A stretch of 64,000 bases of DNA from Candidatus Poribacteria bacterium (lineage in GTDB: Bacteria; Poribacteria; WGA-4E; WGA-3G): NCBI GenBank assembly GCA_028824575.1, contig JAPPDN010001023.1, positions 25,347 to 89,346 on the forward strand. The letters are read 5' to 3'. The position numbers and the translations under genes were made by a program. This document shows, piece by piece, positions 6,275-64,000 of this stretch. The notes below the pieces were generated by a model. The model made no database searches, was not told the DNA's origin, and was given only the letters and a program-made list of their open reading frames with translations. How positions within the stretch are numbered: the first letter of the stretch is position 1; every line of letters begins with the position of its first letter.

Positions 6275-6898
6275 CTACACTCCCTTCAATTCTCTGGATA
6301 AATACGCGTACAAAATCCCGACCTCTCGGCTCGCCTTCCCCGTGGGTTCGTATTCTTGAGCGGTTATACCATCGACAACAGAATGCGAGAAAGCGACACG
6401 ATCCCCAAGGGTGCAGGGCGCGCACGGAACATCATAAATTTCCAGTGCCTTTTTCGCCTTGATAACAACGCTCCCTGACGGCTTGACGCCGTTCAAGACG
6501 ACCCGGATCGGTACCTTCGCCATATTCGCGATCTGGATGGTATCACCGACAGCCTCTAAATCAAAAATTGACGGACGCGAGGGGATCACCGCCAAGTCAG
6601 AGACTTTTGCGGCATCAAGAGCGGCTGACTCCGAATGCGGGGACGTATCTAAAATACACAAAGACACGCCTCTTTCTTCGGCAGTCTCCAAGACCTGGTT
6701 GAGTAACGTCGAATGCGCTGAGATAACCACAGGTGAATCCCCTTCGCGCCGGTGACTCCACTTCACCGCGGAAGCCTGTGGATCTAAATCTATCAGGGCA
6801 GTCGTGTGTCCAGCCTTTTCCGCAGCGACGGCGAGATGCACCGCAAAAGTGCTTTTCCCGCTTCCGCCTTTCCGGGAGAGAATCGCTAACGTCTTCAT
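6275..6898 (-). CDS. parA: ParA-family partition ATPase (deviant Walker A)
   Basis: MKTLAILSRKGGSGKSTFAVHLA (KGGxGKS/T), LIDLDPQ and ILDTSP motifs. I chose the start at MKTLAIL (6898) over the ORF-track start at 6928. Confidence 0.9.
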   Translation of the reverse strand: MKTLAILSRKGGSGKSTFAVHLAVAAEKAGHTTALIDLDPQASAVKWSHRREGDSPVVISAHSTLLNQVLETAEERGVSLCILDTSPHSESAALDAAKVSDLAVIPSRPSIFDLEAVGDTIQIANMAKVPIRVVLNGVKPSGSVVIKAKKALEIYDVPCAPCTLGDRVAFSHSVVDGITAQEYEPTGKASREVGILYAYLSRELKGV

Positions 6899-6917
6899 CA
6901 AAATACCTCTATGTATA

Positions 6918-56554: not shown

Positions 56555-57271
56555 AGTAGAATCTTTCTAAAAAGAGAAAGGCATTGCAGAGCGGGTATCC
56601 GGAGAATGCCGGTATATTTGATAGGCATCTAAAAATCTATATGGAGATGCAGTGCTATGCAGATACAAAGCGCGTGCATAGCACTCTCTGAAGTAAAAGA
56701 CATAATATTCAAAAGTGGTATCGCTTCGGTGTTTCGCTCCGCCACTGGCAGCAAAACGTTTCCGATCTAAGCAACAACCTCCGCCAAGAGGTTGGGGAGG
56801 AGGAACCATTCCCTTGAGAGGGAATTTGGCAGAGATTCCTCCACACCGAAGCTTAGATAGGGAGTGCCAAGAAAATAGCACTCAGAATGTCTGTCTCCAG
56901 AACATTCCATAGATAATTATACCCGACTTCTTGTGAAAAAGTCAAGAAGAAATATCTTTTTCCTTATAGTGATACTTACTGATATACTTAAAGACTTAAC
57001 TTTTATGCAGAAAACGTGCAAGATTGACAAAAATATGAAAAAAACTGAATTTATAGTAGGGTCAATAATTACTTGGACACTCTGATTGTAGCGCAAACTT
57101 TTAGTTTGCGTGCCACCCCCGCACAAACTAAAAGTTTATGCTACGAATGTTCACTTATTTTTCGGTTTTACTATAATTCTGAAGATCAGAGAAATCGAGG
57201 GGAAATGTGGAAGGGGGCATCTCACCGAGAAAATTGTTGGAAAGGCTTGCTCCGCAACACCGCTGCACGTG

Positions 57272-59085: not shown

Positions 59086-62016
59086 ATGGTAGATAACGAC
59101 GTTCAACTGATTCGCAGAATTTTGTCGGGCGACGATGAAGCGTTCAGTACATTAATGCGGAAGCACCAAAAAGGCGTTCACGCGCTGATCTGGCGGAAAA
59201 TTGGGGACTTTCAAATCGCTGAGGAAATTACCCAAGATACCTTTATCCAGGTTTACAAAAAACTCGGGACCCTCGACGATCCCAAACGATTTTCCGGCTG
59301 GCTTTATGTCATCGCGAATCGCCTCTGTATTAATTGGCTCCAACGCGATAAGGTAAAAATGGATAAGTTGAATACACAATCCTTCGAGGATACACATCCA
59401 GAGGAAATAGAAGAGGCCTCTCACCTACACCATGCGTCACATCAACGTGAAGCTGAAGCCGAGAGTCGTCGACGGAATCTCGTAAAAACGCTTTTGGAGA
59501 AACTCCCGGAGAGCGAACGCACTGTCGTGACGCTTTACTTTCTCGGTGAAATGACGGCCAAAGAGATCGGCAATTTTTTAGGCGTATCCATCAACACAAT
59601 TAAGAGCCGACTCCGCCGGGCGCGCAAACGTCTCCAAGAAGAGGAAGCCTTGGTCCAAGAAACGCTTAGGGGTGTGCAATTGTCTGACAGTCTCACTGAG
59701 AATGTGATGCGACACATTGCCGAGCTGAGCCCACCCGCGCCACCCCCGTCTAAGAAACCCTTACTTCCTTTGGCGGCACTCGGTGCCGTAGCCGTCTTGG
59801 CGGTCCTCTTCGGTATCGGGGGGCAATATCTCCTCCGGTTTCAGGCACCATACAGTTTCGATGCCGACGCTGAGCCTACCATCGAAATCGTTGATGAACT
59901 CGTCTACCTTGAGATTCTCGCCAAACCCGCAGTGCGGAACCGGAGCGGCAGAACGATCGCACCCGGTGAAAACAGCGGTGCCGGGATGCAAACCGCCGAG
60001 CCTCACTTCACCGCAAACGCAGCGGACGACACGGGGGCCGACTCACAGTGGACACAGGCAATCGGCCCGACAGGCAGTATTGTCTACAATATCTTTGAAG
60101 CCGCTGACGGAACCCTCTACGCTGCCGCAAAAACAGGGCTCTATAAATTGACACCCGAGGCAACATGGGTGCTTCTTAACGCTGACATCCCGATTGGACA
60201 GTACCGAATCCCTATCACCGAGCACCACGGCACCCTCTATACCGTCTCCGCTGATGAAGTGTTGGCTTCAGAAAATGGGGGTGAGACTTGGGATGCCCTT
60301 GGCGCGCGCCCAAAGGGCATCGCGAATGGACTCATCATCACCGAGTCACCCGAGACAGAAGGTATCACCCTGTCCCTCGCCCTTCAAGAGAAAGGCATCT
60401 TCCGATCTACCGATACCGGTCAGCACTGGATGCCCCTCACCACCGGATTGACAGGGAAACGGATTTATACCCTCGCTGCCATCGGAAATACCTTATTCGC
60501 TGGCACCAACCAAGGCCTCTATCGGCTCGATTCAAACGAATGGCACCCATTGCTCACAGACGCAGCCGATGCCATCTACGCCGTGACCGTTGACGGAAGC
60601 GACCTGTATGTCGGAATGGGTCGAGATGTCGAGAGGTCGGTATCCAGGAGACTCAGGCGCCCTAAATCCATAGACAAAAGAATCTTCCACTCCGCGGATC
60701 TTGGAGCGTCATGGACGGACATAACGCCTATAGATGAATCCCAAGTGATGCATCTCGACTCCGGCCTACAGATTTTGGCTGTAGATAAAACGCTCTTCGT
60801 CCTCGGCGTAACCGAATTTCGATCCGGGGATGGCGGGAAAACCTGGACACGCCTCAGATCTAACATAAGTTCAAAGGACACATCGAGATTCCCAGCGATC
60901 GCTATCGATGCGAATACATTTTACAAAGTCGATCCGCACGGAATCAGCCGCACCACCGATGCCGGTGAGTCCTGGCACCCGCTTGTAAACGGGATGACAG
61001 GTCCCAGAACATACGACTTAATTGCCCTGAATCAGAGACTCTATATGCATATCGGTGGACACCTGGTCCACTCCACCGATGCCGGTCAGACCTGGCAACG
61101 CCTGCGCTTCAATACCGATGCGCCGACACCCACATTGGATCCCGATTTTTATGCACGCATAAGACTCACAACTGCCAATAATCGCCTCTATGGCATTTCA
61201 ATTGTGGAGAACAGACCGAGTCTTTTCCGAACATCCGATGCCGGAGATGAACTCATCCCCCTCCAAGGGGTCCCCGCTTTTGAACCCGAGCCACCCCCAG
61301 CCAGGGCAAGCGATAGGTTGCGTCTATCGAGAAAAGTAGGTTTAAGAATCAAAGCCTTCGCTGTCTGGGGTGAGACGTTTTACGCGAAATATCAGGAGAA
61401 ACTTTACAAATGGCACCCCGGAGATACCGAATGGACAGACACAGGACTTGCCGATCTCGACTTTCTATCTTCTATCTTGGCTGTTTCTGGGGAAACTGTC
61501 TACATCAGTAAGCCGTACGGTAAGCCGCGCGGAACATTGTTTCAATCTTTAGACGGCGGAGACTCTTGGAAAGACATCACTGCAAGGCTGCCGAGCGGAT
61601 CCACACGTTCTTTAGACGACGGAGATGTCTTGAAACACAAGGGCATACTGACGAGAAGCCACTTCACACGTTTTAAGGAGATGACCTTCATCGGTTCAGC
61701 CGTTTGTATCGCAACCGACACAGGTGTCCTCACCTCACACACCGGAGAACACTGGCGGGTTATCACAGATAAAAACCGGATGCCCATCGTCATAGAAAAA
61801 TTCGCTACAGACGGCACAACCCTCTACGGGGTCAGCAAGAACGGTGCCTACCGCTTCAATGCTGCCGGAGACTGGGAACTGATTTCCTCAGAGGTTCCCA
61901 ACGGTTCGATTCAATCTCTCGTTATCAGTAACAATCGACTTTACATCGCAACCTCCAGCGACGGCATATTCCACATCTCGCTTGAGGAGCAGATCGATAT
62001 CGCCAACTCGTTCTAA
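59086..62016 (+). CDS. ECF sigma-70 factor fused through one transmembrane helix to a large BNR/Asp-box beta-propeller ectodomain
   Basis: Sigma region 2 AEEITQDTFIQVYKKLGTLDDPKRFSGWLYVIANRLCINWLQR. Region 4 LPESERTVVTLYFLGEMTAKEIGNFLGVSINTIKSRLRRARKRL. TM LLPLAALGAVAVLAVLFGIGG. At least 7 Asp-boxes (SENGGETW, STDTGQHW, SADLGASW, SGDGGKTW, TTDAGESW, STDAGQTW, SLDGGDSW). Confidence 0.85.
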   Translation: MVDNDVQLIRRILSGDDEAFSTLMRKHQKGVHALIWRKIGDFQIAEEITQDTFIQVYKKLGTLDDPKRFSGWLYVIANRLCINWLQRDKVKMDKLNTQSFEDTHPEEIEEASHLHHASHQREAEAESRRRNLVKTLLEKLPESERTVVTLYFLGEMTAKEIGNFLGVSINTIKSRLRRARKRLQEEEALVQETLRGVQLSDSLTENVMRHIAELSPPAPPPSKKPLLPLAALGAVAVLAVLFGIGGQYLLRFQAPYSFDADAEPTIEIVDELVYLEILAKPAVRNRSGRTIAPGENSGAGMQTAEPHFTANAADDTGADSQWTQAIGPTGSIVYNIFEAADGTLYAAAKTGLYKLTPEATWVLLNADIPIGQYRIPITEHHGTLYTVSADEVLASENGGETWDALGARPKGIANGLIITESPETEGITLSLALQEKGIFRSTDTGQHWMPLTTGLTGKRIYTLAAIGNTLFAGTNQGLYRLDSNEWHPLLTDAADAIYAVTVDGSDLYVGMGRDVERSVSRRLRRPKSIDKRIFHSADLGASWTDITPIDESQVMHLDSGLQILAVDKTLFVLGVTEFRSGDGGKTWTRLRSNISSKDTSRFPAIAIDANTFYKVDPHGISRTTDAGESWHPLVNGMTGPRTYDLIALNQRLYMHIGGHLVHSTDAGQTWQRLRFNTDAPTPTLDPDFYARIRLTTANNRLYGISIVENRPSLFRTSDAGDELIPLQGVPAFEPEPPPARASDRLRLSRKVGLRIKAFAVWGETFYAKYQEKLYKWHPGDTEWTDTGLADLDFLSSILAVSGETVYISKPYGKPRGTLFQSLDGGDSWKDITARLPSGSTRSLDDGDVLKHKGILTRSHFTRFKEMTFIGSAVCIATDTGVLTSHTGEHWRVITDKNRMPIVIEKFATDGTTLYGVSKNGAYRFNAAGDWELISSEVPNGSIQSLVISNNRLYIATSSDGIFHISLEEQIDIANSF

Positions 62017-62142
62017 ACCTTCACCGCACCCCTACCCCCCGGTTCTTTTTTTCCCCGAATACGGGTGGCAATTCAGAATCGGGGGATTCCCAATTGCCAC
62101 TTGCCACCCGGCGATTGCTGCCGACTTCCATTTCTCAGAGTA

Positions 62143-62169
62143 TGCACCCTTTTGGACACAAAATGTGTC
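62143..62169 (+). promoter_or_regulatory. Copy 4 of the promoter-like motif
   Basis: TGCACCCTT ttggacacaaaa TGTGTC cttaaatt, upstream of repeat element R1 and the 134-aa ORF. Confidence 0.4.
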
Positions 62170-62292
62170 CTTAAATTATAAAAAGCAACGCGTAGATACG
62201 ACTTTAACGGCAAGCTCCGTTCGCGCGACGCGTAGAACCCTTTCATGGAGCTTACCTCACATTTACGAAAGTTTGGACAATTTGAGGATTTA

Positions 62293-62426
62293 TGGTGAAT
62301 TATATAAATAAGTTTACATTTACAAATCGTAGTCCCTTACCGAAACCGTGGAATTCCCCCCTGATAAGGGGGGTTAGGGGGGTTAGATGTTGTTGGATGC
62401 TGTCTAAGTAATTCTAAAATCTACCA
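62293..62426. repeat. 134-bp repeat element R1 (three invariant blocks, two variable spacers, imperfect terminal inverted repeats)
   Basis: Blocks are TGGTGAATTATATAAATAAGT, AATTCCCCCCTGATAAGGGGGGTTAGGGGGGTTA and TGTCTAAGTAATTCTAAAATCTACCA. All three are identical to R2 and have identical spacing (38-nt and 15-nt spacers). Confidence 0.8.
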
Positions 62427-62451
62427 TAAATACGAACAGAGGACTAAAAAC

Positions 62452-62856
62452 ATGGATTCAAACTATAGGTATAAAGATGCACGTCTGAAGCCTAAAATCG
62501 CCAAAGCCATCATCTTAGAACAGTTTGCCGGAAAAACCATGAGCAGACGAGAGATTGATGCTGCCGTTATCCAACACCATGAATCAAACGGAGGGCTTCC
62601 GTCAACGGCTAAGACAAACCCTATCAAAGCGGCGCTTAGATATTTAAAAGACAAGAATTTTGCCGAAAATGTTTCCAGCGGTTCAGGCAGCACGTGGCGA
62701 ATTTTTGAGAATCCCAAACCTGTTTCCGAACCCTTGGGTACCCAACGGCTTATCGAAATGATTAAAGCAGAAATCCAATATCTCACAACGCTGATGAAAT
62801 CCTTTGAACATCGAGTCGCCGAACTTGAAGCGATACTCACCAAAGAAAATCAATAG
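62452..62856 (+). CDS. Hypothetical protein (134 aa) with a C-terminal coiled coil
   Basis: GAGGA RBS. I recognise no family motif. The gene is flanked by R1 and R2. Confidence 0.5.
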   Translation: MDSNYRYKDARLKPKIAKAIILEQFAGKTMSRREIDAAVIQHHESNGGLPSTAKTNPIKAALRYLKDKNFAENVSSGSGSTWRIFENPKPVSEPLGTQRLIEMIKAEIQYLTTLMKSFEHRVAELEAILTKENQ

Positions 62857-62952
62857 TATTTCGCAAGAGCATCAGCTTATGGGGAGGTCCCTAATAGCCC
62901 GGCATCCTCCCCGCCTCCCTGTCCATATCCGTTACCACCGTTCTCCAATCCT

Positions 62953-63086
62953 TGGTGAATTATATAAATAAGTAGACTTATGCAAGTCAATGTATCCTGA
63001 GCAAGACCACTAATTCCCCCCTGATAAGGGGGGTTAGGGGGGTTAAGTCCTCATCTGTAATGTCTAAGTAATTCTAAAATCTACCA
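62953..63086. repeat. 134-bp repeat element R2
   Basis: It has the same three invariant blocks as R1, exactly 660 bp downstream of each R1 block. The spacers are the same length but only about 40% identical. Confidence 0.8.
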
Positions 63087-63129
63087 CTGTTGCTGTCCCG
63101 TGAGAGCTCAAGACGATTCTTCCGCAGTA

Positions 63130-63156
63130 TGCACCCTTTTCGCCCAAAGTTGTGTC
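63130..63156 (+). promoter_or_regulatory. Copy 5 of the promoter-like motif
   Basis: TGCACCCTT ttcgcccaaagt TGTGTC cttaattg, about 50 nt upstream of the ECF sigma gene start. Confidence 0.45.
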
Positions 63157-63208
63157 CTTAATTGTAAAAGGGAGTAACACTTTATACACTGACATTCGGG
63201 AGGCAAAT

Positions 63209-63826
63209 ATGAAGGCGACTTTAACGGAACGTGGAAAACTCGATTGTCTTGATGAGCCCCAACTCATCACGCGAATTCAGAAGGGCGATACAGAGGCGTT
63301 TACGCCTATCGTGCTTATGTATCGAGAAAGAATCTATAAACTGATTTACCGATGGGTTCACCACCACGAAACAGCGGAGGATCTCTGCCAAGAAGTATTC
63401 CTGAAAGCCTGGCAGGCGTTGCCGGGGTTCAGAGGCGGCTCTTTAATCTATAGTTGGCTCTACCGAATTGCTGTCAATTGCTGTAAAGATTTCTTGCGCA
63501 GCCAACGTAAACAAATTGTATTTGCGTGTGAGGCACTCCCCGATAACCCAGATGATGTGATCCGAACAACACGGATGCACCCCAGTCCAGATGAAATCCT
63601 TGAAAAGGAGGAACTCAGAAGCATCGTAAGCGAGTGTGTGCGTCAACTTCCGTCTCCCCAGCGCCGCGTTTTTTATCTCCATTACCGAGAGGGGTACTCG
63701 ATAAAAGAGATCGCCGCACACTTGAAAAAGCCGGAAGGTACCATTAAATCGCACTTATATCACGCCCGTCAAAAGCTCCAGCACATGCTACGACCTTACC
63801 TAACACACGAGGAGACACTCCCATGA
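63209..63826 (+). CDS. ECF (RpoE-like) sigma-70 family factor
   Basis: The start at MKATLTE has a GGGAGG RBS. Region 2 AEDLCQEVFLKAWQALPGFRGGSLIYSWLYRIAVNCCKDFLRS. Region 4 LPSPQRRVFYLHYREGYSIKEIAAHLKKPEGTIKSHLYHARQKL. Confidence 0.9.
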   Translation: MKATLTERGKLDCLDEPQLITRIQKGDTEAFTPIVLMYRERIYKLIYRWVHHHETAEDLCQEVFLKAWQALPGFRGGSLIYSWLYRIAVNCCKDFLRSQRKQIVFACEALPDNPDDVIRTTRMHPSPDEILEKEELRSIVSECVRQLPSPQRRVFYLHYREGYSIKEIAAHLKKPEGTIKSHLYHARQKLQHMLRPYLTHEETLP

Positions 63827-64000
63827 AAGTAATTTTTCCATTGGCAGAACGTCGGTTTCCCTGTTTAAAGACGTGTACGCACCATACATTACAATCGCCA
63901 CGCCCGTGTAAAGCGGGACCGACACTCGCCCATCTACTGGAACCGCTGTGTCAACTGCCGGTTTCCGAGTTTATTTTTCTTGTCAATTATCAGAGTCATG
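63823..64000 (+). CDS. Partial ORF translationally coupled to the ECF sigma gene (possible anti-sigma factor by position only); 3' end outside the window
   Basis: ATGA start/stop overlap at 63823-63826, with GAGGAG upstream. The frame is open to the window end. The Cys-containing N-terminus (CLKTCTHH) is not a clean HxxxCxxC motif. Confidence 0.3.
   Translation, partial: MKVIFPLAERRFPCLKTCTHHTLQSPRPCKAGPTLAHLLEPLCQLPVSEFIFLVNYQSH

Follow-up and report, generated by a model that had tools for sequence, protein, structure and literature searches.

Two partly identical 134-nt repeats in a Poribacteria genome as very likely independent MITE insertions linked to an IS630-family transposase

The closest counterparts of the repeats analyzed in this work are RUP, with its partner IS630-Spn1, and the other bacterial miniature inverted-repeat elements (MITEs) of IS630/Tc1-mariner type. 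These elements are non-coding, span about 100-150 bp and carry ends matching those of an IS630-family insertion sequence (IS); the RUP-type ones insert at TA with duplication of that dinucleotide and exist as many intergenic copies that fall into subfamilies differing inside the element. Correia elements (CREE/NEMIS) of Neisseria provide a second point of reference, with 26-bp inverted repeats, a TA duplication, a length of about 100-155 bp and a central IHF site; they are frequent in leaders and between genes, with possible effects on neighbouring transcripts, and we know of no autonomous partner for them. The two repeats described here, R1 and R2, share with RUP-type MITEs all of the features listed above, and with Correia elements the length of the inverted repeats, the TA duplication, the overall size, the presence of a central module and a leader or intergenic location. 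They differ from RUP in their unrelated sequence, in their Poribacteria host and in a strictly conserved GC hairpin that is common to other repeat families, and from Correia elements in the lack of any sequence similarity and in having a partner IS that can be identified. This partner also departs from the IS630-Spn1/RUP case in its unusual shortness, at 905 bp, and in having a stop codon within the right inverted repeat. A search of the literature on Poribacteria miniature inverted-repeat elements found no paper.

R1 (62293..62426, plus strand) and R2 (62953..63086, plus strand) reside in a 64,000-nt stretch of a Candidatus Poribacteria contig (the window), which belongs to an assembly of 5.57 Mb in 1032 contigs that is 81% complete (G000). 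A repeat search and direct comparison define them as two 134-nt copies in direct orientation, 660 nt apart, that share three blocks with zero mismatches: B1, of 21 nt (62293-62313 in R1 and 62953-62973 in R2), a central block of 34 nt (62352-62385 and 63012-63045) and B3, of 26 nt (62401-62426 and 63061-63086). The segments between the blocks have kept their length and little else, with 16/38 identical positions (42%) in the 38-nt segment (S1) and 4/15 (27%) in the 15-nt segment (S2). The shared 34-mer has two occurrences in the window and none in 100 shuffles. The ends of both copies are imperfect inverted repeats with 17/26 matches (TGGTGAATTATATAAATAAGTAGACA versus the reverse complement TGGTAGATTTTAGAATTACTTAGACA), and in R1 the left repeat comprises B1 plus 5 nt (62293..62318) and the right one coincides with B3 (62401..62426). 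In the sequence, R1 is bordered by a TA target-site duplication (left copy at 62291..62292, right copy at 62427-62428), and R2 by an atypical CT/CT pair. No ORF of at least 40 aa is contained in either repeat, and the only ORFs that overlap their edges enter from outside. R1 occupies the leader of a 134-aa gene (62452..62856, plus strand; an ORF with no Pfam domain), between a promoter-like repeated motif (62139-62174) and the ATG start codon at 62452; R2 is placed 3' of that ORF, ahead of a further motif copy (63126-63161) located upstream of an ECF sigma-factor gene. The original prediction had described the mismatch-free blocks with their divergent spacers of equal length, the imperfect inverted ends (here read over 26 nt), the 2-bp flanks, a C6-TGATAA-G6 hairpin followed by a second G6 run, and the placement of both copies relative to the gene and the motifs, and all of these are confirmed. 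Its suggestion that the repeats are MITE-like, based on the inverted ends and the 2-bp duplication, is likewise borne out.

Further copies, both in the same genome and in its relatives, establish R1 and R2 as members of a dispersed family. Profile searches of G000 recover about 70 B1-like and about 70 B3-like ends, and the pairing of such ends defines 32 complete elements of 93-165 nt, with TA at the left flank in 31 of the 32 and at the right flank in 28. All 32 conform to the pattern T(A/G)GT(G/A)AA...AATAAGTnGACA ... TGTnnAAnTAATT...CTAC(T/C)A, and their interiors are swappable, harbouring various hairpins. The paired-end profile search also locates a further member of this superfamily in the window, a 120-nt element on the minus strand (57054-57173; TAGTAAAACC...CCCTACTA / TAGTAAAACCGAAAAATAAGTGAACA...TGTCCAAGTAATTATTGACCCTACTA, TA/TA) in which a long GTAGCATAAACTTTTAGTTTG... 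palindrome stands in place of the C/G hairpin. Sister genomes contain dozens more elements with these ends, as a rule accompanied by TA duplications. Copies of R type (TGGTGAATTAT...core...AATTCTAAAATCTACCA, with the central hairpin as core) are found in other genomes of the genus (16 in G131, 8 in G137, 7 in G127 and 4 in G174), and R-type elements are present in a second family too (G049 and G051). The full-length copies in relatives measure 124-135 nt and mostly show TA flanks, and some of them bear nested inserts.

The same ends delimit transposase genes. R-type ends enclose IS630-family (DDE_3) genes in three genomes (G154, G140 and G127), and in G154 the enclosed unit is a 905-bp IS on the minus strand (L100 1465-2369, G154:C1) with TA flanks on both sides, TGGTGAATGCTAAAAATATATAGACA as its left end and ...TGTATAAGTAATTCTAAAATCTACCA / ...ATGTATAAGTAATTCTAAAATCTACCA as its right end. 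R1 and R2 agree with this IS at 25/26 positions in the right end and at 19-20/26 in the left end (19/26 for the left repeat of R1), and the IS copies of G140 and G127 close with the same right end, which the right repeat of R1 also matches at 25/26. The G154 IS encodes an orfA product with an HTH_Tnp_IS630 domain (79.6 bits) and an orfB product with a DDE_3 domain (111.8 bits), in two frames; the overlap between them falls at an A8 run, suggestive of a programmed frameshift. The transposase stop codon falls within the right inverted repeat (...ATG TAT AAG TAA), and hence the end of the transposase gene is predicted to overlap the binding site of the transposase itself. Judging from the match to this IS, the outer blocks of R1 and R2 are probably protein-binding sites, in the form of transposase-binding inverted repeats. 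The proposal of modular protein-binding sites put forward in the original prediction thus probably holds for the outer blocks. Neither the G154 IS nor its transposase has a match by blastn or tblastn in the 81% of the genome represented in G000. Several loci of this assembly were rejected as autonomous partners: the ends of the sole DDE_3 gene, on C310, are unrelated (GGACTATTCAGTTTT), an ATPase-like gene and an ordinary ORF are all that is enclosed by a 2.7-kb B1...B3 pair on C500, and R-type ends are lacking at the Y1_Tnp and DDE_Tnp_1 loci. The matching IS may belong to the fifth of the genome that the assembly lacks, or else R1 and R2 may be orphans.

At the level of sequence, then, R1 and R2 present every feature of a MITE of IS630/Tc1-mariner type save for the CT/CT flanks of R2: they are small and non-coding, with terminal inverted repeats, a TA duplication (R2 excepted), many dispersed copies, presence or absence at orthologous sites and ends that match those of a transposase-encoding IS. 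With the family, its ends and TA duplications, the variable occupancy of the orthologous locus and the matching IS all directly observed, it is very likely that R1 and R2 are two independent non-autonomous insertions, moved in trans by a 0.9-kb IS630-family transposase and belonging to two old subfamilies. The mobilisation step itself is our inference. The transposase would move elements of this type by cut-and-paste into TA sites, and the outer identical blocks would be the terminal inverted repeats of about 26 bp required for its binding. The central block would be a GC hairpin module borne by every copy of the family and shared with other Poribacteria repeat families, and the 38-nt and 15-nt segments would be unconstrained filler, diverged between the subfamilies and equal in length through common descent without indels.

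The existence of two subfamilies emerges from a whole-locus search across 65 genomes of the genus. Full-length copies of R2 are found in G140 and G154 at 87-93% identity and with TA flanks, and one of R1 in G169 at 89% identity; all of them lie at unrelated loci, most with TA flanks. Within a subfamily, then, both filler segments (38 and 15 nt) are conserved, and they do not behave as variable guides. Furthermore, the filler can be aligned between subfamilies in a gapped alignment of the family (e.g. a shared ...CCTGAGC.AA.ACC... motif), pointing to old diverged homologues rather than unrelated inserts and thereby explaining the equal lengths. When 26 R-type copies drawn from 15 genomes are aligned, the commonest base at a position has a mean frequency of 0.92 in B1, 0.93 in B3 and 0.88 in the core, against 0.66 in S1 and 0.63 in S2. 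Among the 325 pairs of copies, the 209 with spacers less than 50% identical average 86% identity in the ends and 82% in the core, and a dozen pairs attain 96% in the ends. Conservation of the ends and hairpin across the family, over a drifting filler, fits selection for transposability, since a copy leaves descendants only if its cis-acting parts are intact. The original prediction had judged the blocks too well kept for neutral decay, and in this it was right, inasmuch as they correspond to constrained parts of the element. It had also supposed that an ordinary MITE would diverge uniformly along blocks and spacers; such uniformity is not seen, and the greater conservation of ends and core relative to filler should be the pattern expected of the cis-acting parts of a MITE.

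Constraint alone may not account for every base shared by R1 and R2, some of which could stem from recent co-mobilisation or from conversion of short tracts. A stronger form of this argument, in which the identity of the blocks stems from recent local gene conversion or recombination between neighbouring copies and not from functional constraint, strikes us as improbable. It draws on the fact that R1 and R2 are the most extreme of the 325 pairs, with ends and core at 100% and spacers at 38%, and that they lie just 660 bp apart in direct orientation. Moreover, the left block of R2 agrees with that of R1 (TGGTGAATTA) and not with the variant of its own subfamily (TGGTAAATCC in G140 and G154), this being the one difference in the blocks between R2 and those relatives. 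Conversion would nonetheless need three separate short tracts sparing the two segments in between. In addition, all the blocks of R1 and R2 are in the consensus state of the C6/G6 clade, with the same states seen in G169, G136 and G133; TGGTAAATCC is plausibly a derived change of G140 and G154, and many cross-subfamily pairs from different genomes already agree at 96% of their end positions.

A much less probable alternative is that R1 and R2 are structured-RNA genes or leaders, after the fashion of a bridge RNA, an omega-RNA or a crRNA, in which an invariant scaffold presents two guide or seed segments; the original prediction had been reminded of guide-bearing or seed-bearing RNAs. The layout of blocks and spacers does invite such a reading, as do the position of R1 within a probable 5' leader and the retention of the stem through a single compensatory change from C-G to U-A between clades. 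The remaining evidence runs against it. A permissive Rfam search of positions 61500-64000 returns only two chance snoRNA-like matches, below threshold, and hence no family, and single-sequence folds of R1 and R2 on both strands are no better than those of shuffles (z-scores of -0.06 to -1.1). When 16 diverse copies are folded as a consensus, all that survives is a 5-bp terminal pairing, the core hairpin and weak G-U pairings; the switch between C-G and U-A, at the base of the core hairpin, separates two clades, the covariation term amounts to -0.54 kcal/mol, no covariation is found outside the hairpin, and S1 and S2 enter no conserved helix. The putative guides are those same segments that are conserved within subfamilies across genomes (87-93% for R2 and 89% for R1), and they match nothing else in G000 and no entry among 50,697 phage records. 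The neighbourhood of R1 and R2 contains no IS110, TnpB or Cas gene, and both repeats are missing at orthologous loci. The guide-and-scaffold proposal is accordingly not supported.

The occupancy of this locus differs among related genomes. The 134-aa gene has ECF sigma genes as neighbours, in the order BNR-fused sigma gene, 134-aa gene, ECF sigma gene, and six relatives (G160, G118, G153, G171, G168 and G146) keep this order without R1 or R2, at 79-84% DNA identity. R1 is absent from the orthologous leader of G153, G171 and G168, where the leader (AAAGTTTGGACAATTTG...) continues directly into the ribosome-binding site, as seen by reading the leader sequences themselves, since MAFFT mis-threaded R1 when aligning them; R2 is absent from the orthologous intergenic region of G153, G171, G146, G160 and G118. 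The occurrence of a syntenic locus devoid of both repeats in six relatives indicates that the repeats are later arrivals and that, on the comparison of gene order, the 134-aa gene is a resident and not cargo. Least probable of all is hence that R1 and R2 form the ends of a composite transposon or cassette carrying the 134-aa gene, or recombination sites for it: two direct copies do flank a single small gene, and the left end of R1 and the right end of R2 would make a valid inverted-repeat pair, but the gene is syntenic without any MITE in those six relatives, each repeat is framed by a matching pair of its own (TA/TA and CT/CT) with no shared outer duplication, and no second copy of the gene occurs elsewhere in any of the 65 genomes.

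Several other features of the locus deserve mention. A scan for promoters and terminators of positions 61900-63300 yields sites no commoner than in shuffles. Just 3' of the 134-aa gene there is a hairpin (GGGGAGG-N18-CCTCCCC, 62881-62912), conserved in G146, G160, G118 and G168, that is probably the terminator of the gene, or a processing site. The leader also contains, 5' of R1, a 60-nt segment (62200-62259) with an internal inverted repeat (GCAAGCTCC...GGAGCTTAC), which the leaders of G153, G171 and G168 lack although they can be aligned elsewhere, and which is unique in the genome by blastn. In G168 (L067), a lone right-end fragment of a related MITE (...TTATAGGATCTACCA|TAAAT) lies 3' of the 134-aa orthologue, near the position of R2, which suggests that this intergenic region is a repeated landing site.

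The remaining component of R1 and R2 is the central hairpin module (AATT-C6-TGATAA-G6-TTA-G6-TTA), located at 62352..62385 in R1 (plus strand) and, 100% identical, at 63012..63045 in R2. The core of this module (C5-6-TGATAA-G5-6, then (T)TTA-G5-6-TT) is matched 93 times in G000 when the strands are counted separately and at most two mismatches are allowed, corresponding to about 70-80 sites given that palindromic copies match both strands. Most of these cores fall inside a repeat family of the form TAGGACTTACGCA...TGCGTAAGTCCTA, and others are found in the loop region of GGTAGG...hairpin elements or in the context ...CCCATCTTATT[core]TATCTTCG... An exact 26-mer of the core is present in 92 of 176 Poribacteria genomes, which belong to only four genera in two families, with copy numbers from 0 to about 330 per genome (331 in G174, 283 in G131, 48 in G000) and none for the reversed control. 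The core was rejected as a secondary insertion into R-type MITEs, because all 30 R-type elements retrieved solely by their ends carry it (30/30); the hairpin is thus integral to the R-type family and not a later, polymorphic addition.

A core that is common to unrelated repeat families and almost invariant across two bacterial families raises the question of function, and we infer selection on the module. One tentative and rather doubtful reading is that the hairpin is a functional module acquired and required by several unrelated Poribacteria repeat families. This would explain a conservation second only to that of the inverted repeats, the maintenance of the stem by compensatory change and the presence of the same 26-mer in two families. 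As to its role, the hairpin could be a binding site for a host or transposase factor required in excision or integration, or, with A-rich and T-rich tracts on its sides, a bidirectional transcription stop or insulator that softens the harm done by insertion. Homogenisation among copies numbering in the hundreds is a further possibility.

The behaviour of the core invites comparison with REP/REPIN (RAYT) sequences and with the nested small dispersed repeats of cyanobacteria, which likewise comprise hairpin units within repeats or in tandem arrays and have a copy number that is highly variable between related genomes. Unlike REPs, however, the core has no GTAG foot, has no dedicated transposase linked to it and is integral to all R-type MITEs, and for want of that foot it was rejected as a REP/REPIN; GTAG-footed hairpins do occur in the interiors of other members of the superfamily, though not in the core of R1 or R2. 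Nested structures abound in G000. On contig C602 (~6510-6900) the core forms a tandem array with a 42-nt period (TTCTTCCAATCAAAG plus core) in which C5/G5 and C4/G4 versions alternate. In some places the core is interrupted between GGGG and TTTAGGGGG by a 35-36-nt element, CGGGGAATGCCCATAAGGCATTCATACCGTTGATTC, which may be present two times over and constitutes a third level of nesting (contigs C612, C686, C827 and C22; loci L036, L043, L048, L051 and L058), and a 22-23-nt unit, TGTTTTTGCTGGGGTGTTTCTT, appears between the core hairpin and the second G run on contigs C506, C553, C831, C886, C995 and C532, with C506 and C743 exemplifying its presence and absence. A second large repeat family of this genome is bounded by (T/C)AGGACTTACGCA...TGCGTAAGTCCT(A/G) and has 117 strand-specific matches, or about 60 distinct elements of 60-256 nt, the interiors of which vary interchangeably between the C/G core, GTAG-footed hairpins and other MITEs and the ends of which resemble those of the C310 IS630-like gene (TAGGACTATTCAC...). 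G000 contains three Y1_Tnp (IS200/RAYT-like) genes, on contigs C367, C428 and C594, and many MITE interiors with GTAG-foot hairpins (e.g. GGTAGGCGAGGTTTCCTAACCTCGCC), and the two together suggest a REP/RAYT-type system in this genome.

Taken as MITEs, R1 and R2 are ordinary selfish DNA in the genome of a sponge symbiont and not guide-carrying RNAs. Repeats of this type call for masking as mobile DNA rather than annotation as regulatory or guide RNAs, which avoids mis-annotation, and their dispersal explains part of the fragmentation of Poribacteria assemblies. What novelty remains is restricted to the hairpin module, the repeats belonging otherwise to the already known class of IS630/Tc1-mariner-derived MITEs. 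Together with its very short IS630 partner of 905 bp, the family constitutes a compact natural system in which to address what MITEs require in cis beyond their inverted repeats. At the locus studied here, the insertion of R1 has placed a strong GC hairpin in the leader of a conserved small gene situated between two ECF sigma-factor genes, and it could thereby alter the expression of the 134-aa gene in this lineage.
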